NCBI GenBank assembly: GCA_041657385.1
Contig: JBBABZ010000003.1
Span: forward strand, 8,820-72,819
Direction: 5' to 3'
DNA length: 64,000 nt
Source: Minisyncoccota bacterium
GTDB lineage: Bacteria > Patescibacteriota > Minisyncoccia > Minisyncoccales > JAQTVQ01
Shown piece after piece: positions 36,918 through 60,782 of this stretch. How positions within the stretch are numbered: position 1 is the first letter of the stretch; each line of letters opens with the position of its first letter. Below the pieces are notes generated by a model that ran no database searches, was not told the origin of the DNA, and was given only the letters and a program-made list of their open reading frames with translations. Both the position numbers and the translations under genes were made by a program.

Positions 36918-37413
36918 GGCCAAGCAGGCAGGCGATCGCGCCGTTTTCCGCGAGGAAAATGGTGAGGAAAGTCCGAACACCCAGTCCCGCAAAATGCGGA
37001 ATTAAAAGTAGAGGGCAACACCCTTCATCCGTAAGGATCGAGGTGCGAACAGTGACGTGTCTGGCCGAAAGGCTGGACAGCCCCGCCCTCTAAGCCCGTG
37101 GAATAAGACTTGCTGTAGAATACGGCATTAACTGTATCTCAGCATTTTATTGATTCAACGAGCATAGAGGGCGGGGATATTCCTATAGCGATATAGGGGT
37201 GCAACGGCTAAATCCTTACTCGGGTGCAAGAGCAAACTTGGGTGCGCAAGCATCCAAAGAAAAGTGGCTCGCTAGAGCCGAAGAGCAATTTTCGGCCCAG
37301 ATAGATGATCGCTTCGCCTCGCCGTAGCCTTTGGTTATGGCGGGCGATACCCGCCTTCGCTCCTTTTGGAGCTATGGCGGGTGATACAGAATTCGGCTTA
37401 TTGCCTGCTTGGC
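36918..37413 (+). ncRNA. rnpB: RNase P RNA (bacterial type A) with internal expansion
   Basis: CR-I GAGGAAAGTCCGAAC...TAGAGGGCA, CR-II/III GTAAGG..GGTGCGAACAG, CR-V ACAGAATTCGGCTTA. P1 stem GCCAAGCAGGCA/TGCCTGCTTGGC closes the ends. No real CDS here (ORF 36746..37093 is spurious). Confidence 0.85.
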
Positions 37414-37424
37414 ATCTTTTTCAA

Positions 37425-41551: not shown

Positions 41552-41666
41552 AGAGGCAGGCGGGCTTTGCCCCGCCGAAGCCGAGCCATCAAAAAAGATA
41601 TAGTTTGGGATAAAAAGAAAGACTATGCCCGCCTTCGCTCCTTTCAGGAGCTACGGCGAGGCGAAG

Positions 41667-41738
41667 GCGGGTGTCGTATAACGGCTATTATGGTTCCTTC
41701 CCAAGGAACAGACGGCGGTCCGACTCCGCTCACCCGCT
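41667..41738 (+). tRNA. tRNA-like element, possible tRNA-Gly(CCC) or pseudo-tRNA abutting recombinase 3' end
   Basis: Acceptor GCGGGTG/CACCCGC, perfect anticodon arm GTTCC-TTCCCAA-GGAAC (U33, CCC, A37), T-arm GGCGG-TCCGACT-CCGCT (T-loop has C55), weak D-arm. It competes with an alternative 11-bp hairpin (GCCCGCCTTCGC/GCGAAGGCGGG). No CCA encoded. Confidence 0.3.
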
Positions 41739-43190
41739 CATAGAGATAAACTCGTGTTTTTTAGACGACAGCGACCACGGTTTTTGCAATGAAATAATGG
41801 GTTTTTGGCCGGCAATAAGGTAGTCCGAGCCGATCTTTTTCAGGAAGTCCCGTTTTCCCTCCAAATTTTCGCTTTCCGCGATGGAATTGGCTTGAAATGC
41901 CTGCAAAATCCACTCTTTGAAGAGTCCGAGCCGAACATTTCCCTTTCGTCCAAAATTTTCTAGCTCCTCGTTAATTTCAACCTTGCGGTTGAGCAGTTTT
42001 TGTTTTTTGGCGACGTACTCTTCGCGGCTGATTGCTTGGTCTAAATAAGAGTCCAAGAGCCTGTTCAGTTTTGCCTCGACGGTTCTTAGTTCGGCTTTTA
42101 AATTTTGGGCGGAAGCGTTGGCGGTAGTGGAAAGCTCTTTGTGATCTTTTTCCCATCGTTTGAGAAAATTATCTTTCCACTCCGCGTTTAAAGCAACTTT
42201 TTGAAAAAGCTTATTCAGCTGTTGTTTTAATTTTTGCTCGCCGATATATTTTTGGCTGCAAACTCTGTTTTTCTTGGTACAGCGATAATAGGTGTAGGCT
42301 TTGCCAGAAGGTTTAACTCTGGTTTCAGCGGTGATCTGGCGGCCGCACTCGCCGCATTTAAACACTCCTCGGAAAGTGTAGGGTTTTAAACTTTTTGCCT
42401 GCGGCTTGCCGTGCTCCCGCATTATGCGCTGCACTTTTTCAAAAAGTTGCTTGGAAATGATCGGCTCGTGATTGCCTTGATATATTTCTCCTTTGAATCG
42501 GAACAGGCCATAGTAAAATGGATTTTTGAGCACATCCTGCAGCTTAGAGAGAGCGATGGCTTTCTTTTTCCTCTGTCCAACTAACCCGAGAGAAAAAGAC
42601 AATTTTTGTAAATTTTCTAAAGTATATTTTCCCGTAGCGTATGCCTCGAAAATTTTTTTAATGATTTCCGCCCTTTGAGGATCTTTAATGATCGTATGAT
42701 GGCGCAATTCATTTAAATATCCGACAGGAGCATAAGCCGGATATTCGCCATTTTTCAATTTTTGCCTTAACCCGCGTTTTACATTCTCGCTCAAATTATC
42801 AATGTAGTATTTTGACTGGCCGAAAGCGATATTAAGCATAAACTTTCCCTGCGGTGTCGGCTCAAACCAGAAAGTAGGGAATTTTAAGCCTTCGATTTTT
42901 CCGGTATCTACGAGATAGATGATCTTCCCTCCGTCAACACTGTTGCGCGCCAGCCTATCGGGATGCCAGCTTAAAATTCCAAAAGGCCCGCCAGATTCTA
43001 TCCTTGCGATCATTTGGTTGAATATGGGCCTGCCCGGAACCTTGGCGGTCTTTGCTTCGATGAATTGATCGGCGATTTCCAGTCCTTCCTTGGCGGCAAA
43101 TTCTTTTAATTCCATCAGCTGGGCTTCAATGCTCAAGACTTGGCGTTCTTCTTCGTCCGTGGATTTTCGAGCGTATAAAAAATATTTCAT
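41730..43190 (-). CDS. large serine recombinase (resolvase N-domain + recombinase domain + zinc ribbon + coiled coil)
   Basis: N-terminus MKYFLYARKSTDEEERQVLSIEAQ (catalytic Ser region), Cys cluster CGECGR...YYRC, C-terminal coiled coil. 486 aa. Confidence 0.9.
   Translation of the reverse strand: MKYFLYARKSTDEEERQVLSIEAQLMELKEFAAKEGLEIADQFIEAKTAKVPGRPIFNQMIARIESGGPFGILSWHPDRLARNSVDGGKIIYLVDTGKIEGLKFPTFWFEPTPQGKFMLNIAFGQSKYYIDNLSENVKRGLRQKLKNGEYPAYAPVGYLNELRHHTIIKDPQRAEIIKKIFEAYATGKYTLENLQKLSFSLGLVGQRKKKAIALSKLQDVLKNPFYYGLFRFKGEIYQGNHEPIISKQLFEKVQRIMREHGKPQAKSLKPYTFRGVFKCGECGRQITAETRVKPSGKAYTYYRCTKKNRVCSQKYIGEQKLKQQLNKLFQKVALNAEWKDNFLKRWEKDHKELSTTANASAQNLKAELRTVEAKLNRLLDSYLDQAISREEYVAKKQKLLNRKVEINEELENFGRKGNVRLGLFKEWILQAFQANSIAESENLEGKRDFLKKIGSDYLIAGQKPIISLQKPWSLSSKKHEFISMSG
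41735..41791. repeat. inverted repeat arm (57 bp, perfect) inside recombinase-1 3' coding end; partner at 43312..43368
   Basis: cgctcatagagataaactcgtgttttttagacgacagcgaccacggtttttgcaatg is the exact reverse complement of 43312..43368. Confidence 0.85.
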
Positions 43191-43311
43191 ATTCCTTTTA
43201 AGAATAAAAAATTAATTTGGCTTGGTGAAAATTTGGAGGGAAAAAATCGTCTTTCGTTTTCAATAAAAACATAATCGGACTTCCATATCGTCGGCCAAAA
43301 ACCTATTATTC

Positions 43312-43368
43312 CATTGCAAAAACCGTGGTCGCTGTCGTCTAAAAAACACGAGTTTATCTCTATGAGCG
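43312..43368. repeat. inverted repeat arm upstream of recombinase-1 start; partner of 41735..41791
   Basis: Exact reverse complement of 41735..41791. Explains spurious ORF 43187..43468. Confidence 0.85.
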
Positions 43369-43466
43369 ATTTATATGAAAAAGTTCGGACTTTCTTCCTT
43401 AACGGGGAGGACTGAAAAGCTGTCTTTTTTCTGTTGTATCTTTTTTGGTTAAAAGGCGCAAATCCC

Positions 43467-43602
43467 ACCCCGACTATTGCTCGTCAGCCCGGGTTTAGCC
43501 TTAAACCCAGTCTTCCTCGCAGACCGCGGCCCTGCTCGGGCAGGTCCGCTCGGATTGGGCCGCCAGCCAACGCATTTTAGCCGCAGGTGGGGGTAAAAAG
43601 GG
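43467..43602. repeat. ~133-bp inverted repeat (left copy) flanking the 17-kb cargo; partner at 60889..61021
   Basis: Reverse complement ~90% identical to 60889..61021. A diverged direct copy lies at ~62786..62930. Confidence 0.8.
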
Positions 43603-43763
43603 GGCTAAAATATAATATAAATCGAAGCCGATAGGCTTCGCCAAAAAATTGAAATAAAGTCGAAAAAGAGCTATCTTGAATAAAAATATAGCTTATTTAT
43701 CTTTGATTAAATTAGCCTAAAAATCAGAAAGGAGCGGCGTTGATGATTTAACAAAACAAAAAC

Positions 43764-45215
43764 ATGTTTGAACAATCATTTAAAAATATAGACAATATTC
43801 TTCATACTGATTCCGGTTGCGCAACAGAGCTTGATTATGTTGAACAAACTTCGTGGATCCTTTTTTTGAAATATCTTGATGATTTGGAAGATACTAAAAA
43901 AACTGAAGCGGCGCTGGCCGGAAAAAAATATGAATATATCTTGTCGCCGGAATATCGTTGGAATGTTTGGGCTTGTCCAAAGAATGGCGGCGGTAAACTG
44001 GACCACGGCAAAGCGTTGGACGGAGATGATCTTAGAGATTTTGTAAATCAAAATCTTTTTTCATATCTTAAAAAATTTAAAGCCGATGAACCGAATACCA
44101 TTGAGTATAAAATCGGAGAAATTTTTTCCGAATTAAAAAATAAAATTTCCAGCGGTTATAAGATGCGGGAAATTTTGAATATTGTTGATGGAATGCATTT
44201 TCGTCTTTACGAAGAGAAACACGAGCTTTCGCATCTCTACGAAGCCAAAATTAAGAATATGGGCAACGCCGGACGAAACGGCGGCGAATATTACACGCCA
44301 CGGCCGCTTATTAAAACCATTGTCAAAGTGGTCGCGCCAAAAATTGGCGACAAGATCTATGACGGAGCTTGCGGCAGCGCGGGATTTTTAGTGGAAGCTT
44401 ATAAATATCTTACAGAGAACCAATCCAAGCTTTCTTCAAGCCAGATGTCGACGCTTCAAAATAAATCGTTTTACGGCAAAGAAATAAAATCCCTCGCTTA
44501 CATCATCGGCATCATGAATATGATCCTGCACGGCATTGAAGCGCCAAATATCAGGCATATGAATACGCTGGCCGAAAACATCAATGACATCCAGGAAAAA
44601 GATCGTTTTGATGTTATTCTGGCAAATCCTCCTTTCGGCGCGGGTATTGGCCGAGAAATTCAGCAAAATTTTCCAATCAAGACCGGCGAAACAGCGTTTC
44701 TTTTTCTGCAACATTTCATCAAAATTCTCAAAGCTGGAGGTAAGGCAGGAATCGTTATTAAAAATACCTTTCTTTCCAACACCGATAATGCCTCGGTGTC
44801 TTTGCGAAAATTGCTTTTAGAAAATTGCAATTTACATACCGTTCTTGACTTACCAGGGGGTGTCTTTGCTGGCGCAGGCGTGAAAACCGTTGTTTTGTTT
44901 TTTGAAAAGGGTGCGCCAACAAAAAAAGTTTGGTTTTACCAGCTCAATCTTAGCCGCAATCTTGGTAAGGGCAGCCCTCTAAAAGAAGCGGATCTGGCGG
45001 AATTTGTGGAGCTACAAAAGACCAAGGCGGATAGTGAGAGCTCGTGGAGCGTTGACACTAAAGATATTGATCAAAATACTTTTGATTTGTCGGTAAAGAA
45101 TCCGACCAAGAGCAATGAAGTGATTTTGCGTGAGCCGAAAGAGATTTTGGATGAGATGAACAAATTAGATAAAGATAGTAGTGAAATTTTGAATAACATT
45201 AAAAGATTTTTATAA
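43764..45215 (+). CDS. hsdM: type I restriction-modification system methyltransferase subunit (HsdM, N6-adenine)
   Basis: 483 aa with HsdM N-domain, SAM motif (DGACGSAGFL) and catalytic NPPFG. Confidence 0.9.
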   Translation: MFEQSFKNIDNILHTDSGCATELDYVEQTSWILFLKYLDDLEDTKKTEAALAGKKYEYILSPEYRWNVWACPKNGGGKLDHGKALDGDDLRDFVNQNLFSYLKKFKADEPNTIEYKIGEIFSELKNKISSGYKMREILNIVDGMHFRLYEEKHELSHLYEAKIKNMGNAGRNGGEYYTPRPLIKTIVKVVAPKIGDKIYDGACGSAGFLVEAYKYLTENQSKLSSSQMSTLQNKSFYGKEIKSLAYIIGIMNMILHGIEAPNIRHMNTLAENINDIQEKDRFDVILANPPFGAGIGREIQQNFPIKTGETAFLFLQHFIKILKAGGKAGIVIKNTFLSNTDNASVSLRKLLLENCNLHTVLDLPGGVFAGAGVKTVVLFFEKGAPTKKVWFYQLNLSRNLGKGSPLKEADLAEFVELQKTKADSESSWSVDTKDIDQNTFDLSVKNPTKSNEVILREPKEILDEMNKLDKDSSEILNNIKRFL

Positions 45216-45218
45216 AAT

Positions 45219-46499
45219 ATGGTTGACAGTGAACAAAAGATTAAGTGTCCTAAATGTGGAGAATCAATTTCAATTGATGATGTTCTAACGCACCAAATTG
45301 AAGAAAAAATTAAAAAGGATTTTGAGGTAACTCAAAAAATAAAAGAGGGAGAATTAGCTCAAAAATCAGAAGATTTAAAAAAACAGGCTGCGGAAATTGC
45401 CGAGAACAAAAAAGATATTGGTTCAATGGTGGCAAAACAAGTAGCCGAACAGATGGGGAAAGAAAGACTGGGGCTTTTTAAAGAAGCGAGAACGGAGGCG
45501 GAAAAAGAACAGAGCGCAAAAACCGTGCTTTTAGAAGAACAATTGAAGAGCAAGGATGAGAAATTGGCACAGGCAACAAAGAATGAAGTGGAGTTACGCA
45601 AAGACAAGATAAAGCTAGAGGAAGATAAGCAGGTATTTGAATTGGAAAAAATACGTCAATTGGAAGAATCAAAGAAGGCAATTATTGAAGAAGCAAACAA
45701 GAAAGCAACAGAAGAGCAACAATATGTTATTGCTCAACTGAAAAAACAGCTTACGGATGCAACAAAAGCCAAAGATGATTTGGCACGTAAACTCGAACAG
45801 GGTTCGCAACAAACACAAGGCGAGGTTTTGGAATTAGAGCTTGAAGAGATTTTGAAAACGGAATTTTCACAAGATGAAATAATCCCCGTACCCAAAGGAG
45901 TAAAGGGCGCTGATGTAATTCATAAAATCATAGATCGTTCCGGCCGTTTATGCGGGCAGATTGTTTGGGAATCGAAAAAGACAAAAGCGTGGAGTGAAGG
46001 CTGGATTCAAAAGCTTAAAGACGACCAAAGACTTATAAAGGCGGATGTGGCGGTAATTGTCTCAATAATATTGCCCGAAGGTGTAAAGGGTTTTGCCCTT
46101 AGAGATGGTGTTTTTGTTTGTGATGTAAAACTGGCAATCAATCTTGCCTCATTATTAAGATATGATTTGCTAAAAGTAGCCGAAGCAAACAGAGCATTGG
46201 CTGGGAAAGAAGAGAAAAAAGACGTGGTTTATGCATATGTAAATAGTACTGAATTTAAACAAAGAATCCAAGCCATTGCGGAAGCGTTTATTGAAATGAA
46301 GAACGATATAGATAAGGAGAAAAGATCATATCAAGCCATTTGGGCAAAGAGAGAAAAACAGGTGCAGCGAGTTATAGACAATACATTTGGAATTTATGGA
46401 GACCTAAAAGGGTTAACTGGTGGAACAATACAAGAAATTAAAATGTTGGAATTAGATGCTGGTGAAATTAGAGTAAATGAAGATGAAAAAAATATTTAA
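45219..46499 (+). CDS. DUF2130-like protein (N-terminal CPKCG zinc ribbon, long coiled coil, C-terminal globular domain) embedded in type I R-M locus
   Basis: KCPKCGESISIDD at the N-terminus, ~200 aa of K/E-rich heptads, and a conserved C-terminal domain. Sits between hsdM and hsdS. Confidence 0.55.
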   Translation: MVDSEQKIKCPKCGESISIDDVLTHQIEEKIKKDFEVTQKIKEGELAQKSEDLKKQAAEIAENKKDIGSMVAKQVAEQMGKERLGLFKEARTEAEKEQSAKTVLLEEQLKSKDEKLAQATKNEVELRKDKIKLEEDKQVFELEKIRQLEESKKAIIEEANKKATEEQQYVIAQLKKQLTDATKAKDDLARKLEQGSQQTQGEVLELELEEILKTEFSQDEIIPVPKGVKGADVIHKIIDRSGRLCGQIVWESKKTKAWSEGWIQKLKDDQRLIKADVAVIVSIILPEGVKGFALRDGVFVCDVKLAINLASLLRYDLLKVAEANRALAGKEEKKDVVYAYVNSTEFKQRIQAIAEAFIEMKNDIDKEKRSYQAIWAKREKQVQRVIDNTFGIYGDLKGLTGGTIQEIKMLELDAGEIRVNEDEKNI

Positions 46500-46517
46500 T
46501 TTTAAAAAAGAGTAATT

Positions 46518-48410
46518 GTGTTTTTATCTAAATTTACTATCTTAAATAATAAAAGTTGTAAAACCATTAATCTTGCTCCGTCAAAAACTGAACCGGAAGT
46601 TTTGATTGGTATTAATGATTGTGGTAAATCAACGATACTCAGATCATTAGATATTTTTTTTGATGAGAAAAAAAGCCTCTATTTTCTTCGAGAAGATCAA
46701 CAAAAAAGTGATTTGTCTAATTCCCCGCTCACTGCGCAAGAATTCAACCATGCAATAAGTGATTTTGGATATGCACCATTTTACAATTATTCAGGAAATG
46801 TTATCGGAATCTTATGTGAATTCGAATTAGAAGAAGCTGATAAAACAGATACCGAATTTCAGGACAGTGCAAAAAATCTGCATTTGAAATGGGCTATCGG
46901 TGATTCCAACAAAATCGTCATTTTGCGTATATTTCATGATAACGCTGTCGCGGGTCCAAACCTAAATGGATATTACTTATTAAATAATGATTACAAAAAA
47001 GATGATAATTTTCTTGAGGCTTGGAATAAAACAAAAGAAGTATTAAAAAAAATTCGTAAAGATTTAGCTATAGCTGATGCGGATGTAACTAATGAAAATG
47101 GCAAAGGACCTTTTAAAAATATTGAAGAAATAAGGGCTATTTATAAAAAAGTAGAAGTTGATTTGGAGCTATCATGGTTTTTATATAAGGACTTCTCAAA
47201 AGATAAAACATTTTTTCCAAGTTTTAAATATCTTGATTGGAATTTTTCCTTGAAAGATTTAGAGGATTTGGCCACCGAAGCCATGAATGAGGTAACAAGT
47301 CCGTTATTAGGAGAAATAAAAAGTTTAGCCTCAACAAAGCAAGTTGAAGCAATTGTGGGAGTAAACAAGAAATTTGAAGAATTGATGGGCAATCTAAAAG
47401 ATGAATTGCCTACAAGCATAAAAAAAATTAGTTCCTCTGTATTTTTTAATGTAAACCAAAAAATTACTGATATAAAATTAACGAAGGAGAATGTTGATGG
47501 GGAGGTGCATATTGATAATCAAGGTGACGGAATAAAAAGACAAATTTGGTTCGCGTTATTAAAATGGCGCAGTAAGCTGCCCGTAAGCGAGATAAAAAGA
47601 AACAAATATATTTGGTGTTTTGACGAGCCGGAAACACATTTGTATCCATCAGCGCAAAGACAGCTTTTTAGCACCTTCCGTGATATGTGCGAAAAAGAGT
47701 TCCAAGTATTATTAAGCACTCACTCCACAGTGTTTATTGATAGAACAAGGATAAACAATATTAACAAAGTCGTTTTAAATAATGGCTATTCCGTAATTAA
47801 TAAAACGGACGATATAGATGATATTTTTGATTGTTTGGGTTTGAAAAATAGCGATTTTCTATTTTTTGATAAATTTCTTGCCGTTGAAGGTCCGACCGAA
47901 TATGAACTAATCCCAAAGCTGTATAAACTAAAATTTGGTAAAACTTTAATTGAAGATGGAATTCAGTTGATAAATTTAAAAGGTAAATCGCAGTGTGAAA
48001 ACCATAAACAAATTTTGGAAGATATTTTGTCAAAATTTAAAAAAGCTGATGACAAGATTTATTATTTATTTGATGCTGATACCAAAGTTACTAGAGGAAC
48101 GAATGTTTGTGTAGTTGGAACAAATGACATAGAGGATTCTATCCCTAACAATATTTGGATTAAATTTGTTAAAGATAATTGTGATATTGATTTGACAGAG
48201 CAAATCTTAGATGACGAGATAAGAGCAAAATTAGACCCTCAAAAGAAATTTTATAAATTACTTCATGATTATATTGCAAATAATGTAGTCAATGATAAAT
48301 ATTTACCATCAAAAGGCAGTGATTCTGGATCAATATTAGCAGGATGCTTTACCAATAAAGAAGAAATACCAACGAGTATTAATGATTTTTTTGATTGTAT
48401 CAATTTGTAA
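46518..48410 (+). CDS. OLD-family (overcoming lysogenization defect) ABC-type ATPase + TOPRIM nuclease
   Basis: Walker A GINDCGKSTILRSL, Walker B/D-loop IWCFDEPETHLYPSAQRQL, H-motif LLSTHS, then TOPRIM (LAVEGPTEYELIP glutamate, YYLFDADTK DxD). Confidence 0.75.
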   Translation: MFLSKFTILNNKSCKTINLAPSKTEPEVLIGINDCGKSTILRSLDIFFDEKKSLYFLREDQQKSDLSNSPLTAQEFNHAISDFGYAPFYNYSGNVIGILCEFELEEADKTDTEFQDSAKNLHLKWAIGDSNKIVILRIFHDNAVAGPNLNGYYLLNNDYKKDDNFLEAWNKTKEVLKKIRKDLAIADADVTNENGKGPFKNIEEIRAIYKKVEVDLELSWFLYKDFSKDKTFFPSFKYLDWNFSLKDLEDLATEAMNEVTSPLLGEIKSLASTKQVEAIVGVNKKFEELMGNLKDELPTSIKKISSSVFFNVNQKITDIKLTKENVDGEVHIDNQGDGIKRQIWFALLKWRSKLPVSEIKRNKYIWCFDEPETHLYPSAQRQLFSTFRDMCEKEFQVLLSTHSTVFIDRTRINNINKVVLNNGYSVINKTDDIDDIFDCLGLKNSDFLFFDKFLAVEGPTEYELIPKLYKLKFGKTLIEDGIQLINLKGKSQCENHKQILEDILSKFKKADDKIYYLFDADTKVTRGTNVCVVGTNDIEDSIPNNIWIKFVKDNCDIDLTEQILDDEIRAKLDPQKKFYKLLHDYIANNVVNDKYLPSKGSDSGSILAGCFTNKEEIPTSINDFFDCINL

Positions 48411-48411
48411 T

Positions 48412-49608
48412 ATGGATAAGAAGAACAAAACTAACTGGCAAATAAAAAAACTTGGCGAGGTTTGTGATTTTGAGGGCGGTTCGCAACCGCCTAAAGTTAA
48501 TTTTATTCACGAACCAAGAAAAGGTTATGTGCGCTTTTTACAAATAAGAGATTTTGGAAGCGATAAACACATTACATATATCCCAGACTCGAAGAAAAAT
48601 AGACACTGCACAGAGGATGATATTTTACTTGGTAGATACGGAGCTTCCGTTGGAAAAATATTGATCAATAAAAAGGGAGCATATAATGTAGCTGTAATGA
48701 AAACATTGCCCAAATACGATCTTTTAGATAAAAAGTATTTCTATTTTTATTTAATTTCAGATGAGTTTCAAAAGCGTTTAAGCAAGGTGGCGGCTAGGTC
48801 AGCACAAGCAGGATTTAGTAAAGATGATATTTATGACTTTCCAGTTGTAACGCCGCCCCTCCCTGAACAACGCCGTATTGTGAAAATTTTGGATGAGGTT
48901 TTCGAGAAGACGGCGAAGGCGAAAGAAAATGCGCAAAAAAATCTGCAAAATGCCAAAGAGCTTTTTGAATCGTATTTGCAGAGTGTTTTTGCTCCTCCTT
49001 CGCTAAAGTTAAGAGCGGACAAGGAACCATCGGGAACGAATTGGAAGGAAAAAAAATTGGGAGAAATCGCATCTTTTTCGCAGGGAATACAAGTTGGGTT
49101 AGAAAAACATTTGACGGAGCCAAAAAAAGATTATGTTAGATTTATCAGGATTGTCGATTACACTCAGGACACAGAAGATATCAGATATATTCCAAATCCT
49201 GGAGATAAATATTTTGTTAATGAGAATGATATCGTAATGGTCCGGTATGGCACACCTGGTTTAATCGGGAGAGGAAAAGCGGGTGTAATTGCCAATAATC
49301 TATTCAAGATAACAATAGATAAAAATTATTTGTTGAACGATTATTTATGTTTTTACCTATCTCAAAAAAATATACAAATTTATTTAAGTACCCGAGGTTC
49401 TGCTACTATGCCTGCATTAAATTTTGGGCAGCTTAAAACAGTAGTTATCAATTTTCCATCATTATCCGAGCAAAAAGCGATTGTTGCCAAACTTGATGCA
49501 CTTTCTACCGAAACTAAAAAATTGGAGGCGATTTATAAACAAAAATTAGCGGATTTAGATGAGCTGAAAAAGTCAGTTCTTAAACGTGCCTTTATTGGTG
49601 ATTTATAA
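48412..49608 (+). CDS. hsdS: type I restriction-modification system specificity subunit (HsdS)
   Basis: Two target-recognition domains separated by conserved coiled-coil regions, repeated at the C-terminus (LDEVFEKTAKAKENAQKNLQNAKELFESYLQ). ATG 48412 abuts the OLD gene stop. Confidence 0.85.
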   Translation: MDKKNKTNWQIKKLGEVCDFEGGSQPPKVNFIHEPRKGYVRFLQIRDFGSDKHITYIPDSKKNRHCTEDDILLGRYGASVGKILINKKGAYNVAVMKTLPKYDLLDKKYFYFYLISDEFQKRLSKVAARSAQAGFSKDDIYDFPVVTPPLPEQRRIVKILDEVFEKTAKAKENAQKNLQNAKELFESYLQSVFAPPSLKLRADKEPSGTNWKEKKLGEIASFSQGIQVGLEKHLTEPKKDYVRFIRIVDYTQDTEDIRYIPNPGDKYFVNENDIVMVRYGTPGLIGRGKAGVIANNLFKITIDKNYLLNDYLCFYLSQKNIQIYLSTRGSATMPALNFGQLKTVVINFPSLSEQKAIVAKLDALSTETKKLEAIYKQKLADLDELKKSVLKRAFIGDL

Positions 49609-49620
49609 TAAACTACATTT

Positions 49621-52011
49621 ATGAACGAATCAGAAACACGAGCCGAATATATTGACCCGAAACTTAAAGCGAGCGGATGGGGCGAAGTTGAGGGATCAAA
49701 AGTCCATCGCGAATTTCGTATTACCGAAGGTAAAATTCAAGCTGGCGGAATGCGGGGCAAGCCGGAAATTGCCGACTATATTTTGGTTTATAAAAACCGT
49801 AAAATTGGCGTGATCGAAGCCAAAGCCGAAAACTTGGAAGCCACTGAAGGTGTAGCGCAAGCCAAAGCGTATGCGCAAAAATTGCAGATTGATTATACTT
49901 ACGCCACCAACGGCAAAGAGATTTACGAAATATCTATGAAAACCGGGCGAGAAGGGATTATCGCCGATTTTCCAACTCCTGATGAATTGTGGAATAAGAC
50001 ATATTCTGACCAAAACGAATGGAAAGAAAAGTTTGCGAGCGTGCCAAACGAGGGCGAATACGGCAAGCGCTATTATCAAGAAATCGCCATCAATAATATT
50101 CTAAACGCTGTAGCGGAAGAAAAAAGCAGAATTCTTTTAACTATGGCAACCGGTACCGGAAAAACTGCTGTAGCTTTTCAGGTCGCCTGGAAACTTTTTC
50201 AAACTCGCTGGAATTTGAAACGCGATGGCGCCCGCCGACCGAGAATTTTATTTTTAGCTGACAGGAATATTTTAGCCGATCAAGCGTTCAACGCTTTTTC
50301 CGCTTTTGATAAAGATGCACTTGTCCGCATTAATCCGTTGGATATTCGCAAAAAGGGCGGAGTCCCGATGAGCGGCAGCGTTTATTTCACAATTTTTCAA
50401 ACTTTTATGAGCGGCCAGGGCGGCAGCCCGTATTTCGGCGATTATCCGGCCGACTTTTTTGATTTTATTATAATTGACGAGTGCCATCGCGGCGGAGCCA
50501 ACGATGAAAGCAATTGGCGGGGGATTTTGGAATATTTTTCACCGGCGGTCCAGCTTGGTCTGACTGCCACGCCAAAACGGGCAGATAATATTGATACTTA
50601 TAAGTATTTTGGCGAACCGGTTTATATTTATTCGCTTAAAGAGGGCGTAAATGATGGTTTTTTAACGCCTTTCAAGGTTAAACGGATCAAAACTACGCTT
50701 GATGATTATGTTTATACTTCCGACGATCAAATCATTGAAGGAGAAGTAGAAGAAGGGAAAATTTATGAAGAACCAGATTTCAATCGGATTATTGTTATTA
50801 AAGAACGCGAAGCCAAAAGAGTTCGCGTATTATTGGACGAAATAAATCAAAACGAAAAGACGATTATATTTTGCGCGACCCAAGATCATGCGTTGGCCGT
50901 TCGTGATTTGGTGAATCAAATGAAGAAAAGCAAAGACCCGAATTATTGCGTGCGCGTAACGGCAAATGATGGCGCCCGAGGCGATCAGTTTTTACGTGAA
51001 TTTCAAGATAACGAAAAAACGATCCCGACAATTCTTACAACATCGCAAAAACTTTCTACTGGCGTTGATGCTCGTAATATTAGAAATATTGTTTTAATGC
51101 GACCGGTAAATTCAATGATTGAGTTCAAACAGATCATTGGCCGCGGAACCAGGCTTTTTGATGGAAAGGAATACTTCACGATTTATGATTTTGTGGATGC
51201 CTATAAACATTTCTCCGATCCGGAATGGGATGGCGAACCGGTCGACGAAATATGCTCAAAGTGCGGGAAAGAACCTTGTATTTGTGAAAAGGAACCTCCT
51301 CAAATATGTTCAATATGCGGGAAAGAACCATGTGAATGCGAAAAACCGCCTAAGCTTTGCCCAATATGCGGCAAACTGCCATGCGAATGTAAAAATCAAC
51401 CAAAGAAAAAATTGAAAATAAAACTGCGTGATGGTAAGGAGCGCGAGATAAAGCATATGATCTCCACTTCTTTTTGGGGTGCCGATGGCAAGCCGATCTC
51501 TATTCAAGAGTTTATGGACAATATGTTTGGTACTATGCCGGAATTTTTCAAAAGCGAAGAAGAGCTGAGAAAGATTTGGTCGAATCCGACAACGCGGAAA
51601 GCGTTTTTAGAAAAAATTGCCGAAGCTGGTTATGGCAAAGACGAATTGGAAACGCTGCAAAAAATGATTGATGCCGAGCAAAGCGATTTGTTTGATGTTT
51701 TGTCATACATATCATTCTTAACTCAGCCAATTTCAAGAGTGCAGCGAGTAGAACAAGCAAAAGACAACATTTTTGAAGGCTTAGAAGAAAAACAAAAAGA
51801 ATTTTTAGATTTTGTTTTATCAAAATACGAACAAAAAGGCGTTGAGGAGCTTGATGAAGAAAAATTACCGATCTTACTAAATTTAAAATATCATTCGCCA
51901 GCTGATGCAATAAACATTCTCGGTGATGTAGAAAACATTCGATCAATTTTCTTCGCCTTTCAGAAAAATTTGTATGCCAAAACGAGCAAGGAGTACGCGC
52001 AGAAGAATTGA
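49621..52011 (+). CDS. hsdR: type I restriction enzyme R subunit (HsdR) with Cys-rich tandem-repeat insertion
   Basis: N-terminal PD-(D/E)xK domain (ADYILVY...VIEAKA) and SF2 helicase motifs (ATGTGKT, DECHR). Near the C-terminus, three ~36-39-nt tandem repeats encode C-x2-CGK-x-PC-x-CE (51243-51400). Confidence 0.9.
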   Translation: MNESETRAEYIDPKLKASGWGEVEGSKVHREFRITEGKIQAGGMRGKPEIADYILVYKNRKIGVIEAKAENLEATEGVAQAKAYAQKLQIDYTYATNGKEIYEISMKTGREGIIADFPTPDELWNKTYSDQNEWKEKFASVPNEGEYGKRYYQEIAINNILNAVAEEKSRILLTMATGTGKTAVAFQVAWKLFQTRWNLKRDGARRPRILFLADRNILADQAFNAFSAFDKDALVRINPLDIRKKGGVPMSGSVYFTIFQTFMSGQGGSPYFGDYPADFFDFIIIDECHRGGANDESNWRGILEYFSPAVQLGLTATPKRADNIDTYKYFGEPVYIYSLKEGVNDGFLTPFKVKRIKTTLDDYVYTSDDQIIEGEVEEGKIYEEPDFNRIIVIKEREAKRVRVLLDEINQNEKTIIFCATQDHALAVRDLVNQMKKSKDPNYCVRVTANDGARGDQFLREFQDNEKTIPTILTTSQKLSTGVDARNIRNIVLMRPVNSMIEFKQIIGRGTRLFDGKEYFTIYDFVDAYKHFSDPEWDGEPVDEICSKCGKEPCICEKEPPQICSICGKEPCECEKPPKLCPICGKLPCECKNQPKKKLKIKLRDGKEREIKHMISTSFWGADGKPISIQEFMDNMFGTMPEFFKSEEELRKIWSNPTTRKAFLEKIAEAGYGKDELETLQKMIDAEQSDLFDVLSYISFLTQPISRVQRVEQAKDNIFEGLEEKQKEFLDFVLSKYEQKGVEELDEEKLPILLNLKYHSPADAINILGDVENIRSIFFAFQKNLYAKTSKEYAQKN

Positions 52012-52128
52012 AGAAATATTATTGGGATAGTTCCTTTAAGGCAATATCCGAAGTAGGGATTTAAAAAGTAGTCTTCGACAAATCTTCTAAAGGTTTCAAA
52101 AAATAATGATTTATTTAATAAGCAAAAC

Positions 52129-52965
52129 ATGGAATTAAGAGACAGGATGCAAGAATTTAATCAACGCTGGAATGTTGAAAATAATGAATCGTATGGTGAG
52201 AGTTTTGCGAAATTTAAGATTCGCATTCTTAATATCTTAAAAAATATAGATAACCAAGTTACGGAAGGCAGCGTAACTTTATTTTGCCAATTGTATGGCA
52301 TACCAGAAAGTTGGGGATCTTATTCAGGGAGACGCAGATTGAGTGCGAACATTATCAATAGGATTAATGGTGAGAACAATGAAGTGGAGTTTTACAGGTT
52401 GCTAGAGGTTATTTTTTCTTTAGATATCCGTAGCCTCGATGGATATGGCGGATGGGAAGAATATAATAAGCGAAGCATCTATAAGGAAGTATGCCAAGCC
52501 ATTGGATTTTCAGATGTGAACCTTGCCACAACCATGACAGAAAAAGGGGAAATAATTTTTTATCCTAAGGGAGAAGAATTGTTAGATAACGAGCTTGTCA
52601 ATTTTGTTTTAAGCTTTTTATCGGTGGAGAGTAACAAACATTTTGAAGAAGCCCTTGGTTTTTATGGCGCCAAAAAATGGGTTAAATGTGCCGAGAGCTT
52701 ACGCCGTTCCCTTGAACAATATTTGCGAAAAAAGTTCAATAATAATATCGGCCTCAAGACGAATATCGTTGAAATCGGGAAAAAGTTAAAGAACCAAAAT
52801 TCGCCAGCGCAGATTAGAAGTATTGTTTCTATAATCTTTGGCCATCTTGATCAGTTTTTTAACGATAATAGCAAACACAATGATGGCGAGTTGGAAGAAT
52901 CTGATGCTGAATTTTTGATTTACCAAACAGCATTACTTATGCGTTATATCGAGAAATATCTCTAA
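52129..52965 (+). CDS. hypothetical protein
   Basis: 278 aa, alpha-helical, no motif recognised. Confidence 0.5.
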   Translation: MELRDRMQEFNQRWNVENNESYGESFAKFKIRILNILKNIDNQVTEGSVTLFCQLYGIPESWGSYSGRRRLSANIINRINGENNEVEFYRLLEVIFSLDIRSLDGYGGWEEYNKRSIYKEVCQAIGFSDVNLATTMTEKGEIIFYPKGEELLDNELVNFVLSFLSVESNKHFEEALGFYGAKKWVKCAESLRRSLEQYLRKKFNNNIGLKTNIVEIGKKLKNQNSPAQIRSIVSIIFGHLDQFFNDNSKHNDGELEESDAEFLIYQTALLMRYIEKYL

Positions 52966-52987
52966 AATCTTAACAGGAACAAATTAC

Positions 52988-53485
52988 GTGAATTTTTTAG
53001 CCGAAGATCTATTAAAAATTAAAACATTGGATCACTCTAAAATTCAAGCGTGGATCAAGCGGTATTTTTATGATTGTGGCTACTATTCCCGAACGGAAAA
53101 GGAAGTTTGGCGGGATAGAAAAGGCCGGATCGATGTGTTCGCCCAAAAGGGGAGCTATACGGTCGGGATCGAAGTCGATCACAGCTCGATCCGGCTGAAC
53201 TCAATTGAAAAGTTGAACGCACTTAATCCGTCTTTGGCGGTTTTTGTTTTAAAGGGGAAAGTTTTCAATTGGGAAAAAACTTATTCTCGTTTCAAATTTT
53301 TAAAGGTGAAATCTTTGATAATCCATTTGCAGACGAAAAGGTACAAGTGGGTCTGTCCCCAAGAGAAAAATTCTTGTAAAATAGACGAAAGTGTGGATAT
53401 TTACAATAAAAAAATACTTTCTAAAATGTGCCAAAATACAGATTCAGAAAATTTGAAAAAAGCCAAACGCCCCTCAAATTCATAA
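52988..53485 (+). CDS. hypothetical protein, possible restriction-endonuclease-like fold
   Basis: 165 aa. GRIDVF...YTVGIEVD could be a D...E-x-D/K nuclease core. Weak. Confidence 0.3.
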   Translation: MNFLAEDLLKIKTLDHSKIQAWIKRYFYDCGYYSRTEKEVWRDRKGRIDVFAQKGSYTVGIEVDHSSIRLNSIEKLNALNPSLAVFVLKGKVFNWEKTYSRFKFLKVKSLIIHLQTKRYKWVCPQEKNSCKIDESVDIYNKKILSKMCQNTDSENLKKAKRPSNS

Positions 53486-54282
53486 TCGGGCCTAAAGATA
53501 TTTTAATACTCCAAGACCTTGCCGCCTATAAGTTTTTAGATTCAAAACATATATTAGCCTTGCATCCGGAAATAAAGGAAAGAAGCCTTCAATCAAGGCT
53601 TCATTTGCTTTTCCACGGAGGATTGGTGGAGCGGCCGCCAAGCCAATTCACATACTTCCAAAAGGCGGCCCATATCGTTTACAGCCTGACCAAGAAAGGA
53701 GCGGAGCTGGTTTCTCAAGATATGGGAGTTTCCGATCAAGTAAAACAGCCCAAAAATATGGGCGTGTCTTTTTTACAGCACTCGCTGATGATCTCCAATT
53801 TCAAAACAATTCTGGAATTGGCCTTAAAAGAAAACGGCCAGTCAAAACTTTCTTTTTGGAGCGAGCCGAAAACCATTGATGTGATCTATTCCGGCGGCGA
53901 AAGGCTGCCAATCGCACCGGACGCGTTTTTCACGATAGAGGATAAGGATTATTTGATGCATTTTTTCCTTGAAGTGGACCGCTCAACGATGGCGCTTGAG
54001 CGGATGGTAAAGAAATTCAAAGGATACTGGGATTGGCGCGCCGAAGGCGGACACAAGCGAAAGCTGAAGATTTCCAATTTCCGCGTGCTGACGGTGGCCT
54101 TAACCGAAGACCGCAAAGAGAATATAAGAAAGATCGCTAGAAAAGCGGATGACAATCAAACCGGCAGCGAAATGTTCTGGTTTGCCTGTGAAAAAGCGTA
54201 TAATTTAGAAAACACCGGAAAGATATTGGATCCCATTTGGAAAACTTCGAAAAATGAAAATTTACACCATATATTGGAATAA
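53428..54282 (+). CDS. replication-relaxation family protein (plasmid/ICE-associated)
   Basis: PIAPDAFFTIEDKDYLMHFFLEVDRSTM matches the Replic_Relax core. The true start is probably internal (N-terminal region overlaps the previous ORF). Confidence 0.55.
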   Translation: MPKYRFRKFEKSQTPLKFIIGPKDILILQDLAAYKFLDSKHILALHPEIKERSLQSRLHLLFHGGLVERPPSQFTYFQKAAHIVYSLTKKGAELVSQDMGVSDQVKQPKNMGVSFLQHSLMISNFKTILELALKENGQSKLSFWSEPKTIDVIYSGGERLPIAPDAFFTIEDKDYLMHFFLEVDRSTMALERMVKKFKGYWDWRAEGGHKRKLKISNFRVLTVALTEDRKENIRKIARKADDNQTGSEMFWFACEKAYNLENTGKILDPIWKTSKNENLHHILE

Positions 54283-54330
54283 AGGTCGGCCAGGTTTTAA
54301 ATGTAATATTTTAACGCAACAATAAAACTT

Positions 54331-54837
54331 ATGTTTGCAAGAATAAAACAGGAAGCGATCTTGGAGAGTTGGGGAACTTTGGTCGGATCTGTCAGCGGCC
54401 GGAGCGAGGAATTTTTTAGAAAGACGGGAGAAGCCATAAATAGCTATAAAGTGCCATTTCTTGTAATGGACTATAAGGAAGTTGCTCCCAGTTTTGAAAA
54501 GGGGCTTTTCGGCAAAAAGCGTCCGGCCATCATCGTAACAAACAGAAAAATGCCTGAATATAAGATGTTTATCATGTGCAGGGATTATGGAACGCAACTT
54601 TCGATTTCTTGGTATCTTCTTTCCGCCAGCCCGTTGATGTACGCGATAACGACATTTGCGCAGACCTTAGCGCAAACAAAGAAGCCCATGGATGTATTTC
54701 AACTTGAAGAGCTTTCGTGCTGGACGGCAACCGTCCATCACGCGACAACCGCCGCCTCAAAAGAGATCGCCGAATCGGTTGGCTTCGATTTCTCCAAGGT
54801 TGATCAAAAATCAAGAGGTTTTTTAAATATTTCTTAA
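54331..54837 (+). CDS. hypothetical protein upstream of TraD/VirD4-like ATPase
   Basis: 168 aa. Its stop abuts the ATPase start. Confidence 0.5.
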   Translation: MFARIKQEAILESWGTLVGSVSGRSEEFFRKTGEAINSYKVPFLVMDYKEVAPSFEKGLFGKKRPAIIVTNRKMPEYKMFIMCRDYGTQLSISWYLLSASPLMYAITTFAQTLAQTKKPMDVFQLEELSCWTATVHHATTAASKEIAESVGFDFSKVDQKSRGFLNIS

Positions 54838-54838
54838 A

Positions 54839-56383
54839 ATGATTCCAGGCTGGTTGCGCCAATTCTTGGAAAAAGCCAAAGCGGTTTTGAAAAAGATTTG
54901 GGCCATCTTGAATAAGGATATTTTCGTCAAACCGCGTCCGTCAAAACCGGATGCGGCGAATGAAGTGCCTCCAGAAAGGAGGCTGGATTTGGGCTACGCT
55001 TGGGGCGTTGACGAGAAAACGAATATGGAAGGCTTTACCCAGAGAAAAGCGATCTATACGGATTATCGAAAGACGCATTTTTATATAATTGGCGCAACCG
55101 GCACCGGCAAGACCAAGTTTTTGGAGTCGCTCATTATCCAGGACCTCGTGAATGGCGAAGGCTTTGCGGTTATAGATCCGCACGGCGATCTGACCGAGAA
55201 TATCAAGGGTTGGCTGTATCACAAAACGCAAAAAGATTTTCAAAAGGATATTATTTTGATCGAGCCGACTAATCTTGAAAAGACCGTTAGTTTCAACCCC
55301 TTGGAGCCGATACCGGGCATCTCAAGCTCGGAGATCGCCAGCGAGCTGGTGGAAGTGTTTAGAAAGATTTGGATCGATTCCTGGGGCGAGCGGATGGCCG
55401 ATATAATGCGCAACTCTTTGATCGCGCTGGTGGAAAACGGCCTGACCTTGGCCGAATTGCCGCCGTTTTTGACAAATACCGCTTTCCGTAGAAAAGTGAT
55501 GCGTAATGTGAAGAATCCAACCTGCTTGGAACGGCTCGAATATTTCAATTCTTTGCCGCCTTCCACTTGGCGGGAATGGATCGAATCGACCTTGAATAAA
55601 GTAGATGCTTTTCTTTCGGATGCGAGGATCCGTGATATATTCTCTTCGCCTAAAAGTTCTTTCAACCTTCGGGAAATTATGGACAGCGGGAAAATCCTGC
55701 TGGTCAATCTAAGCCGGGGAAGACTGAAAGGCGGAGCCAATCTTTTGGGAGCGCTTCTGGTCAGCAAAATCCAGATGGCCGCTTTTTCCCGTGCCGATAT
55801 GCCGCAAACCAGCCGAAAGCAGTTTTATCTTTACATCGACGAGTTTCAAAATTTTGCCACGGAAAGTTTTGTCGAGATGTTAAGCGAGGCGCGGAAATAC
55901 AAACTTTCCCTGATAATGGCGCACCAGAATTTAAGCCAGCTCCCAAGAACTTTGAAGGATTCTATCCTTGCCAATTGCGGCATTCAAGCCTGTTTTCGCG
56001 TTAATCGTGAAGATGCCCAATTGCTGGCCAAGGAGCTGTTAAGCCCGCTTTACCAGCACCAGCCCGGCTGGGAGCTGAACATCCAGCGCTTGCAGGAACT
56101 GCCGCCGCGGACCTGCTTTGTGGCCAACCGGATGGAAGGCGGGATAATTTATATCTCCACGCCGGACGTGCCTAATCCTTGGGAGCTTATCTGGGGCGAA
56201 GAAGACGGCGAATGGAAGACTTATGACGAGGAAACTTTTCGCAGATTTATGGATGTAATGGGTTACGGTGCCTCTTATTTGCGGGATAGGGCCGAAGTAG
56301 AGGAGGAATATCTGCAAAGGTATACCGAGCTCGTTAAAAGCAAGGAAGGAGAGAATTTCAGGGAAAGAAAAGGCCAAATTTGA
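54839..56383 (+). CDS. TraD/TraG/VirD4-family coupling-protein-like P-loop ATPase (island copy)
   Basis: Walker A GATGTGKT, IDPHGD and Walker B FYLYIDEFQNFAT, the same signature as 9175..11037. Confidence 0.7.
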   Translation: MIPGWLRQFLEKAKAVLKKIWAILNKDIFVKPRPSKPDAANEVPPERRLDLGYAWGVDEKTNMEGFTQRKAIYTDYRKTHFYIIGATGTGKTKFLESLIIQDLVNGEGFAVIDPHGDLTENIKGWLYHKTQKDFQKDIILIEPTNLEKTVSFNPLEPIPGISSSEIASELVEVFRKIWIDSWGERMADIMRNSLIALVENGLTLAELPPFLTNTAFRRKVMRNVKNPTCLERLEYFNSLPPSTWREWIESTLNKVDAFLSDARIRDIFSSPKSSFNLREIMDSGKILLVNLSRGRLKGGANLLGALLVSKIQMAAFSRADMPQTSRKQFYLYIDEFQNFATESFVEMLSEARKYKLSLIMAHQNLSQLPRTLKDSILANCGIQACFRVNREDAQLLAKELLSPLYQHQPGWELNIQRLQELPPRTCFVANRMEGGIIYISTPDVPNPWELIWGEEDGEWKTYDEETFRRFMDVMGYGASYLRDRAEVEEEYLQRYTELVKSKEGENFRERKGQI

Positions 56384-56430
56384 AGAAATCCTTTACTTCT
56401 TTACTGTTTGTATAGTAAGAATAAGGCAAT

Positions 56431-57180
56431 ATGGATTTTATAGCTTCAAACTTAATAACTCCGGCCATAATTATTTCTGCGGCCGCCTATCTTACAAGAT
56501 TTTACGGTAAGGTTATCTCAGATCGAAAACCATTTTCTGACGATCGAGATTGGGAGATCGAATTTTCCGGAATTCTTTTTTTTATAACCATGCTCCTCTC
56601 TGTTGTGCCTGGGATTTTTAGCGCTTTAAAAATCGGTTGGCTTTTCCCTTTTGAGTGCCCTATAATTATGATTGTCTTTTTTTCGACGCTTTGGTTATCG
56701 ATTAGTATAGATATTCTTATTGATAAAAACACATATAAAAAGATATACGATATCAAAATTCCATTTATCCAAAATTTATTTAAATCAGCTAAAGATGACA
56801 GGACAAGATTAAAAGAACCCAACGCAAAATTTTGGACCATTAACGAATATGTGATACTTTGGTTTTTCCCATTCTTATATACATATATTTTGACCATCGA
56901 ATACCAGTCTCAAAATATAGAACGGTTATTCTCCGCAGGGCTCCTCGTTTTTTTAAATTCTATTTTAATAGCACTATTCTACTCACTAAGGAGAAATCGG
57001 CCACGGAAAGCTGATATAATTTTTATAAATAGAGAAAGGTCTCTTTTTGATGTGCTGTTATTAAAGGTAAATAATGATAATGTTCGCATTAAGCAGAAAG
57101 AGAAGGTTTCTATTATTAATAAAGACCAAATTGAGAGGATAGAATTACTTCCGATAAAAGATAATGCTAAAAAATATTAG
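56431..57180 (+). CDS. hypothetical polytopic membrane protein
   Basis: 249 aa, at least 5 hydrophobic helices. Confidence 0.5.
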   Translation: MDFIASNLITPAIIISAAAYLTRFYGKVISDRKPFSDDRDWEIEFSGILFFITMLLSVVPGIFSALKIGWLFPFECPIIMIVFFSTLWLSISIDILIDKNTYKKIYDIKIPFIQNLFKSAKDDRTRLKEPNAKFWTINEYVILWFFPFLYTYILTIEYQSQNIERLFSAGLLVFLNSILIALFYSLRRNRPRKADIIFINRERSLFDVLLLKVNNDNVRIKQKEKVSIINKDQIERIELLPIKDNAKKY

Positions 57181-57201
57181 AATTAATTAAAAAAACGATA
57201 A

Positions 57202-57984: not shown

Positions 57985-58003
57985 ATATAAGATCAAAAAT
58001 AAA

Positions 58004-58816: not shown

Positions 58817-58842
58817 TAGGAAACTAAAAATTACAATATTTT

Positions 58843-59364: not shown

Positions 59365-59390
59365 AGAAGCATTTTTTATCTATAAAAATT

Positions 59391-59654
59391 ATGGCTAAAA
59401 AGACTCAAAAACTTTCTAATCTTAGTCCATTCGCATTCCAGAGGGAGCTTTATGCATCTGATGGTATAAACATTATAAGGACAATTCCGACTAAGGGCGG
59501 AAAGGCTCCCTTCATCGCTTATCTTAAAATTGGTTATGGGAAAGAGATTGAAGTCGATTATTCGATTGACGATGTCGCCCAAGTTTTATCTTCCGGATAT
59601 GAAATTACGAAAGAAGATTATGACAAATCTGACGGCGAAGTTAGGAATAGATAG
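59391..59654 (+). CDS. hypothetical protein
   Basis: 87 aa. Confidence 0.4.
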   Translation: MAKKTQKLSNLSPFAFQRELYASDGINIIRTIPTKGGKAPFIAYLKIGYGKEIEVDYSIDDVAQVLSSGYEITKEDYDKSDGEVRNR

Positions 59655-59700
59655 TTTCCCGCGGTATGATAACCTTTATTTTTTAAAAGAAAGTTAAGCT

Positions 59701-60780: not shown

Positions 60781-60782
60781 CT

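Follow-up and report, generated by a model that had tools for sequence, protein, structure and literature searches.

A serine integrase island at tRNA-Gly with an internal, inverted attachment site in a Minisyncoccota genome and its relatives

Why should a recombinase gene be enclosed by an inverted repeat, one arm of which lies within the 3′ coding end of the gene itself? This question is raised by int1, a gene for a large serine integrase (gene position 41730–43190, minus strand) in a stretch of 64,000 nt from a Minisyncoccota bacterium (assembly GCA_041657385.1, contig JBBABZ010000003.1, positions 8,820–72,819), hereafter the window. A first reading of the DNA made without database searches, called here the sequence-only reading, had proposed a hin-like invertible segment or, alternatively, a minimal insertion sequence (IS)-like or integrative cassette with the recombinase as its only cargo. 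Comparison with complete relatives revealed a larger structure with three attachment sites in the order attL (tRNA/P′), integrase gene, inverted attP (P′/P), cargo and attR (P/flank). Inverted repeats enclose the integrase cassette on the one hand and the cargo on the other, and they meet at a core of 3–17 nt, which covers the tRNA acceptor end, the discriminator and CCA. The window contains two related integrative islands of this kind in tandem at a tRNA-Gly(CCC) gene.

The 57-nt arms (41735–41791 on the plus strand and 43312–43368 on the minus strand) were confirmed to be exact reverse complements with no mismatches, and a pattern search found only these two copies in the window. A repeat search extended the arms to 41735–41828 and 43275–43368 (94 nt, 94% identity). 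Farther inward, an exact box of 18 nt (41853–41870 and 43227–43244) is shifted by a 6-nt indel, so that the self-BLAST span of the pair is 41735–41870 (arm A) and 43227–43368 (arm A′). The outer edge of the repeat is abrupt and identity falls inward. The window comes from a metagenome-assembled genome, which would leave room for an assembly artefact or a chance repeat, but the probability of either is negligible. The 57-nt pattern was not matched in any of 100 dinucleotide-preserving shuffles, and the arms are imperfect past 57 nt, unlike those of a collapsed repeat. In addition, a second copy of the bracket is present in the window, an independent assembly of the same locus agrees with it, and three records with complete genome in their titles (CP174360.1, AP024682.1 and CP055308.1) contain brackets as well.

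A single open reading frame (ORF) was found between the arms, in agreement with the claim that the segment holds the recombinase gene only. It encodes int1 (486 aa), whose final ~45 residues are encoded by arm A. The stop codon (41730–41732) lies inside the adjacent tRNA gene, 2 nt beyond the arm, and this corrects the sequence-only reading. Arm A′ contains an outward-reading pseudo-copy of the last ~32 int1 codons. Inversion would indeed give an intact gene again, with only the terminal residues before the stop codon changed from ISMSG to ISMSDLYEKVRTFFLNGED.

The assignment of int1 as a large serine recombinase was borne out by the Resolvase (PF00239, E = 7.7e-20), Recombinase (PF07508, E = 1.4e-13) and Zn_ribbon_recom (PF13408, E = 2.2e-08) domains. 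Residues R8 and S10, as well as the zinc-ribbon cysteines C279, C282, C304 and C311, were invariant in an alignment of 26 family members. Residues 210–330 match the structure of the A118 integrase (PDB 4KIS), and identity to phage serine integrases, which are distant relatives, does not exceed 28%. The protein is 100% identical to the family record P0001. Int1 is an integrase-type enzyme aimed at tRNA genes and not a Hin-type invertase.

The target of this enzyme adjoins the left arm. The tRNA-Gly(CCC)-like element that had been noticed there is a genuine tRNA gene according to ARAGORN and Rfam (RF00005, 50.2 bits; position 41667–41739, plus strand), and it is assigned as the B half-site. Arm A overlaps its final 5 nt, CGCTC (41735–41739). 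This sequence is the attL core and is common to the tRNA 3′ end, the internal site and the distal end of a close relative, L081. The T-loop motif GTCCGA of the tRNA starts 17 nt before the repeat edge. The int1 gene is convergent with tRNA-Gly, and its stop codon is read from the antisense strand of the tRNA. The left arm is the element side (P′) of attL, and the island adjoins the tRNA-Gly 3′ end. No direct repeat of the 3′ part of the tRNA was found elsewhere in the window, apart from one 16-mer with 3 mismatches at 60565.

In the family alignment, the C-terminus is conserved right up to the tRNA junction, where the codon TGG of a conserved Trp is the antisense of CCA. The frequent ending WSG before the stop is the antisense of the tRNA-Gly acceptor end, and endings of the type WLRR-DSN... 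derive from Asn and Gln T-loops. The tails past the conserved Trp are encoded by the antisense strand of the tRNA that serves as target, so protein length varies with the integration state. In the window, int1, located at the tRNA, has 486 aa and its paralogue int2, which abuts a P arm, has 539 aa.

The sequence-only reading had proposed searching related genomes for homologues with inverted repeats that reach into the 3′ coding end. The int1 family was found to be very large and to occur almost wholly in genomes of the candidate phyla radiation (CPR, Patescibacteria). Two sets of loci were compared. The first comprised 80 loci from species-representative genomes (GTDB), and the bracket, scored where the flank was long enough, was present in 62 of 64 of them. 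The second comprised metagenome loci and loci obtained by exact-protein look-up, with the bracket in 71/83. Together, ~130 loci have the bracket. In those of the first set one arm lies over the 3′ end of the gene and the other 25–440 nt upstream of its start, with the internal core 135–440 nt upstream of the start in most loci. Without gaps, the arms are ~95% identical in the 60 nt next to the core (the outer edge), with a median perfect run of 75 nt. A tRNA or tmRNA gene, convergent with the integrase gene, was found at its 3′ end in ~97 loci (45 in the first set and 52 in the second). The targets include tRNAs for Gly, Asn, Ala, Gln, Glu, Ser, Ile, Asp and Trp and also tmRNA. The arm covers the last 4–8 nt of the tRNA, that is, the final acceptor bases, the discriminator and CCA.

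The role of the second arm became clear in 17 complete elements of 2.5–9.3 kb, in which three sites share a core of 3–17 nt at the tRNA CCA end; a core of this length places the crossover only approximately. Besides the bracket around the integrase, these elements contain a second near-perfect repeat (236 nt, 100% in L081; 135 nt, 100% in L087; 324 nt, 98.8% in L102). L081 comes from the closest relative genome, with an integrase 84% identical to int1 and the same host synteny, MurJ-LepA-DivIC-tRNA-Gly; the same tRNA-Gly site is occupied there by a different island. The sequence just outside its upstream arm (5599–5834) is repeated inverted and with 100% identity 4.6 kb away (721–956). The two repeats of L081 have exactly 5 nt in common, CGCTC, the sequence also present at the junction with the tRNA, and joining the tRNA side to the far flank rebuilds an empty site (...CACCCGC-T-CCA). 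The repeats of L087 also overlap by 5 nt, and the far end of this element adjoins tRNA-Gln. Taken together, these data leave little doubt about the anatomy of the elements and the assignment of their attachment sites.

The cargo is mostly defensive and differs among relatives: L081 carries DpnI and an AAA_15 ATPase, L085 a diversity-generating retroelement and L087 an Abi gene. The L085 retroelement (705–7003) includes a reverse transcriptase, bAvd and a 1271-aa DUF5907 target protein with ~200-nt repeats. In L081 a gene of the 23S_rRNA_IVP family (7639–7986) is located between tRNA-Gly and DivIC, and there is no such gene at this position in the window.

In the window, the right arm is therefore the P′ half of a complete second attP, which is inverted and located between the integrase and the cargo. 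Its core, GAGCG (43364–43368, the reverse complement of CGCTC), was placed on the model of L081 and L087, whose two repeats share exactly 5 nt. The outer half-site X′ (43369–43400, minus strand) contains the motif GTCCGAAC (43383–43390, minus strand), which starts 22 nt from the core, compared with 17 nt for the tRNA T-loop motif. The shift recurs in the family: in 30 of 37 loci a T-loop-like GTYCGR starts at a distance from the core exactly 5 nt greater than that of the T-loop motif (GTTCGA) of the tRNA. In A118/LI integrases, the zinc-ribbon motif is reportedly positioned 5 bp farther out in attP than in attB half-sites. From the 5-nt shift and this rule we infer a genuine P-type half-site in the outer half of the internal site.

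A module of ~400 nt lies upstream of each integrase gene in the window and combines the arm with a short conserved motif (GTCCGAACTTTTT) and GC-rich DNA. For int1 the GC-rich outer part of the internal attP occupies 43440–43610, of which 43466–43601 is 90% identical to an inverted copy at 60889–61020. Self-BLAST and alignment showed that the inverted copy of the outer part of the int1 module extends over 60889–61075 and abuts the arm of int2. A GC-rich stretch of ~150 nt makes up the outer part of every P arm in this sub-lineage (43440–43610, 60889–61020 (inverted) and 62800–62950 in the window; 790–960 and 5599–5760 in L081), and distant relatives have different GC-rich sequences at the same P-arm position. 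A BLAST comparison of the GC-rich flanks with 80 distant loci showed that they are conserved in close relatives only. The folding of this element was unconvincing (z = +0.56 and −1.78, the latter on one strand; 3 covarying pairs from two sequence groups in a 4-sequence consensus). It may act as an accessory site, a leader RNA or a single-strand origin. Rfam searches of both islands, at the gathering threshold and at E ≤ 1, returned rnpB and tRNA only and left the GC-rich element unmatched. The position of the integrase promoter differs among subfamilies, being within the arm in some and outside it in others.

The inverted copy marks the far end of the first island. E1 extends from 41735 to ~61075 (19.3 kb), and the 80% identical E2 begins at 61076; the distal boundary of E1 is this junction, as expected of a tandem array. 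The distal P arm of E1 (60889–61075, plus strand) consists of the GC-rich part (60889–61020) and GGTCCTAGCTTCGTTGTAGATATA at 61052–61075, and is joined directly to arm A2 of E2 (61076–61211), with the junction core CTCA at 61076–61079. The int2 gene (60910–62529, minus strand) encodes a protein 86% identical to int1 and identical to P0002, and its ORF extends through the adjoining P arm of E1; no other contig with int2 is on record. The bracket of E2 is formed by 61076–61167, which is complementary to 62610–62701 (92 nt, 99%) and includes the same inner box. Its internal inverted attP (62562–62960) consists of arm A2′ (62562–62701) followed by the X motif and the GC-rich part. The first cargo gene of E2 encodes a Tsp45I-type restriction enzyme (63022–63810, plus strand).

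The cargo of E1 (43764–60237, plus strand) includes type I restriction-modification genes (hsdM starting at 43764, hsdS at 48382 and hsdR at 49621), genes for DUF2130, an OLD-family nuclease, Replic_Relax (53428) and a type IV coupling protein (54839), and genes with no assigned function. At the end of this cargo there is a non-coding region of ~0.5 kb (60240–60760) with a GC content of ~50% in a genome of 41% GC; it holds a 25-nt inverted repeat (60282–60306 and 60365–60389) and an additional, incomplete copy of the GC-rich element (~60740–60770). Just inside the distal P arm, at 60770–60885, an iteron-like palindrome contains CTGCGT/ACGCAG three times in each orientation, and a related CTGCAT cluster occupies the same position in L081 (977–1068). 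Possible roles of the palindrome are those of an origin, an oriT or a binding site for a regulator.

The extent of E1 bears on the proposal of a minimal mobile cassette, according to which a self-contained element of 1.6 kb, IS-like or integrative, would end at the arms. The sharp outer edge of the repeat and the occurrence of many family members on contigs of 1.6–2 kb agree with this proposal. However, homology among relatives continues 110–400 nt past the upstream arm, the outer flank of this arm is element sequence, of which a second copy lies at the distal end of the cargo, and a target-site duplication is absent. Assembly breaks at the repeats account for the short contigs, as 29 of the 80 contigs of the first set end in the upstream arm region. 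We consider a minimal cassette very improbable and abandon this part of the sequence-only reading: the mobile unit runs from the tRNA to ~61075 with its cargo, and the right arm is a part of a full attP. More generally, these repeats are a systematic cause of assembly fragmentation in CPR genomes. Among the loci L001–L170, about one third of the contigs end within 400 nt upstream of the integrase and about one fifth at the 3′ arm, and many integrase contigs of 1.6–2 kb hold the gene alone.

If one arm belongs to attL and the other to an internal attP, their similarity within an element still has to be explained. Over the elements compared, the arms of one element remain ~94–100% identical. In the window, arm identity is 93.6–96.8% within an element, compared with 74.5–76.6% between E1 and E2. 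The same was found for the GC-rich part of the P arms (90% within E1, 64–66% against E2). High identity within and low identity between elements indicate that the repeats evolve in concert inside each element, so the earlier suggestion of recent recombination or conversion is supported in the form of ongoing homogenisation. Either flips of the cassette or RecA recombination between arms of 75–324 nt would keep the arms alike, most strongly at the core.

Does the segment then invert? Pairs of loci suggest that it does. L105 and L112, obtained from different samples, are 100% identical, and their integrase cassettes lie between 129-nt arms in opposite orientation relative to tRNA-Asn; the order in L112 is tRNA, arm and integrase start codon. 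In L165 a tmRNA comes immediately before the arm and the integrase on their upstream side, and the two arms share only 90% identity. L141 and L142 differ only in their cargo, which is inverted between 199-nt arms; the arm alleles move with the cargo, which places the crossover within 139 nt of the core. The integrase P0105 was found on 17 contigs from many samples, beside one cargo of 9.4 kb in both orientations (L176 and L186). On the full contig L186, the sole repeat at the breakpoints is 56 nt long and 89% identical. The contig names carry the prefix k141, which we take to denote MEGAHIT with k = 141, and a repeat shorter and less perfect than this should not have confused the assembler, so the inversion of this cargo is real. 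No inverted cargo was found in the first all-against-all comparison of 90 loci and the window, and such pairs appeared only when the metagenome and exact-protein loci were included. Other contigs and assemblies with the integrase of the window have the same orientation as the window. The cargo strand relative to the integrase (18 divergent, 9 same and 10 mixed) is uninformative because the cargos differ. On balance, we think that inversion probably occurs, and the strong orientation bias described below suggests that one state is stable. Of the hin-like proposal, the invertible segment gains some support from the minority orientation in L105/L112 and L165, and the likeness to Hin is given up in view of the integrase type of the enzyme and the orientation bias of ~97:2.

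L186 also contains a decayed arrangement, a tRNA-Ser(CGA) joined to an arm-like remnant of ~50 nt, with the integrase lost (11555–11693 and 1767–2168). It is followed by the 9.4-kb cargo and then by a P arm that adjoins the arm of an intact integrase. The proximal part seems to be an island without an integrase of its own, and the neighbouring element could mobilise it in cis.

As a whole, the data lead us to lean, by a modest degree, towards tandem tRNA islands with an internal inverted attP and an invertible integrase cassette. Since tandem arrays exist, the integrase probably accepts an occupied site, that is, a tRNA half joined to any sequence. The attL of an integrated element could then recombine with its own internal attP. 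As these two sites are inverted, a flip of the integrase cassette regenerates the same two site types and would be reversible, and it would need no helper protein. The flip would set the integrase gene either against the tRNA promoter, the usual and silent state, or directly behind it, giving a stochastic on/off toggle of expression. Such a toggle as the purpose of the inversion is the most speculative layer of the proposal, and we put it forward as a conjecture. Equally tentative is the wider idea of a CPR integrase family that reads the T-arm and the acceptor end as a B half-site, targets occupied sites and flips its own gene without a directionality factor, with integrase and cargo modules that are separately invertible and exchangeable.

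Several observations weigh against this explanation. To our knowledge, canonical serine integrases do not recombine attL with attP, and tandem arrays could also arise by insertion at attR. A weight-matrix search of the inner (P′) half-site revealed no clear symmetric X-like motif in either orientation. No conserved small ORF that could encode a recombination directionality factor was found in the minimal cargos, and an ORF that recurs over the internal site of minimal elements merely tracks DNA conservation; each element contains only one recombinase gene, even among the smallest (2.5 kb). The L105/L112 and L141/L142 pairs are known from contigs, and with perfect repeats of 129–139 nt their isomers may reflect the path chosen by the assembler. 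The breakpoints of the L176/L186 inversion lack the att core; this pair is evidence of homologous or older inversion, and not of inversion catalysed by the integrase. Finally, the tRNA is at the 3′ end of the integrase in ~97 loci and at its 5′ end in 2; this bias also fits a static layout with rare accidents rather than a freely balanced switch.

The same bias, the clean cargo inversion without a core at its breakpoints and the fact that canonical serine integrases are not known to use attL with attP speak for another reading, in which the internal attP is a static regulatory duplicate. It would be bound by the integrase as an operator or decoy near the integrase and cargo promoters and would never act as a recombination substrate; RecA-dependent conversion would keep the arms identical, and inversions would be rare, accidental and without function. 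The position of the site between a divergent integrase and cargo in the window, L081, L085 and L087 is in line with such a role. On the other hand, the core in most loci lies 135–440 nt upstream of the integrase start, too far to occlude its promoter, and a binding site of ~50 bp needs far less than arms identical over 75–324 nt. Passive conversion alone also fails to explain why a complete and correctly spaced P-type half-site has been retained. For these reasons a static duplicate seems to us unlikely, although it is the most serious competitor of the invertible cassette.

The internal site might instead be a second functional attP of the free form, with the excised circle split by inverted attPs into an integrase half and a cargo half. 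This would allow integration in either orientation, replication-coupled amplification or, as in CTXphi, the folding back of single-stranded DNA into a double-stranded attP. Such a geometry resembles that of the 2-micron plasmid, in which two repeats of 200–400 nt contain the crossover site and one of the segments holds the recombinase gene. Both segments have been seen inverted in our family, and the relaxase-like and coupling-protein genes of E1 make single-stranded transfer plausible. However, most elements have no replication or transfer genes, and integration through the internal site would put the tRNA upstream of the integrase, which was found in only 2 of ~100 loci. We also reason that, if a serine integrase acted on a fold-back stem, the chromosome ends would be left capped by hairpins. 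A scan of viral contigs gave only 2 truncated matches and recovered no free circular form. We regard this explanation as improbable. Three further candidates were considered and dropped: a degenerate second tRNA as the source of the outer flank, a head-to-head duplication of the integrase, and a repeat made by hairpin-capped integration of single-stranded DNA.

Two RNA features lie outside the islands. A strong hairpin (41627–41673, cccgccttcgc...gcgaaggcggg) overlaps the 5′ end of tRNA-Gly, is followed on the minus strand by a T-rich run and may terminate integrase transcripts that pass the tRNA. Its 17-nt arm is also found in rnpB. This match, recorded in the sequence-only reading, is present (37350–37366 and 41628–41644), but a single pair of 17-mers in 64 kb is compatible with chance, which is its probable origin. 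The rnpB gene (36920–37416) scored 103.5 bits against a gathering threshold of 100 and encodes a divergent RNase P RNA, as expected for a CPR genome.

Serine integrases are prized in genome engineering for being simple and unidirectional. A natural family that recognises the conserved T-arm and CCA end and tolerates many tRNAs would widen their target range, and a second, inverted attP, which may allow reversible inversion by the integrase only, would widen their reaction repertoire. The islands also seem to be one of the main carriers of defence systems in the very small CPR genomes, with type I and II restriction-modification, an OLD-family nuclease, Abi, DpnI and a diversity-generating retroelement among the cargo seen, and their repeats account for the frequent assembly breaks at such loci.

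Islands with serine integrases at tmRNA genes are already known. The layout with an internal inverted attP appears to be new, as a literature search found no description of an internal inverted attP, of dual repeat-bracketed modules or of tRNA T-arm recognition. Among the closest known systems are the ssrA islands of Dehalococcoides, in which the 3′ end of the serine integrase gene dsiB overlaps attL at tmRNA and the stop codon is located only outside the island (PMC3146451). They share with the CPR elements a large serine recombinase at the island end, a tmRNA neighbour, tandem arrays and variable cargo (PMC3146451). However, the Dehalococcoides islands have 20-bp direct repeats, with no inverted copy of the attachment site described, and an integration module of six genes, one of which encodes a second, small serine recombinase, DsiA (PMC3146451), which is absent from the CPR elements. 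The latter also differ in their many different tRNA targets and in a shared core of only 3–17 nt.

Most known serine integrases target protein-coding genes and use one attP. The order of the catalytic, recombinase and zinc-ribbon domains is common to the CPR family and the phage enzymes (A118/LI, 4KIS; phiC31; Bxb1), and the 5-nt shift of the outer half-site resembles the attP/attB rule of the latter. The CPR elements differ in a B half-site composed of the T-arm and acceptor stem of a tRNA and in their second, inverted attP.

The Hin, Gin and Cin systems also place a serine recombinase gene between inverted repeats, and the gene is intact again after inversion. Hin-type enzymes have ~190 aa, a C-terminal helix-turn-helix and 26-bp sites, and depend on an enhancer and Fis. 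Their segments carry a promoter or alternative gene ends, whereas the segment described here carries only an integrase gene, for a protein of 486 aa, between arms of 57–180 nt. Long inverted repeats that contain the crossover site, two invertible segments and repeats kept identical are also features of the yeast 2-micron FLP/FRT system. FLP, however, is a tyrosine recombinase of an autonomous eukaryotic plasmid, whereas the CPR elements are chromosomal and one copy of their repeat is split between attL and attR. Although Islander-type islands and tycheposons have tyrosine integrases, direct repeats of 15–50 nt from the tRNA 3′ part and no internal inverted attP, they share with the elements described here an integrase beside the tRNA 3′ end, a restored tRNA end, variable and often defensive cargo and tandem accretion.

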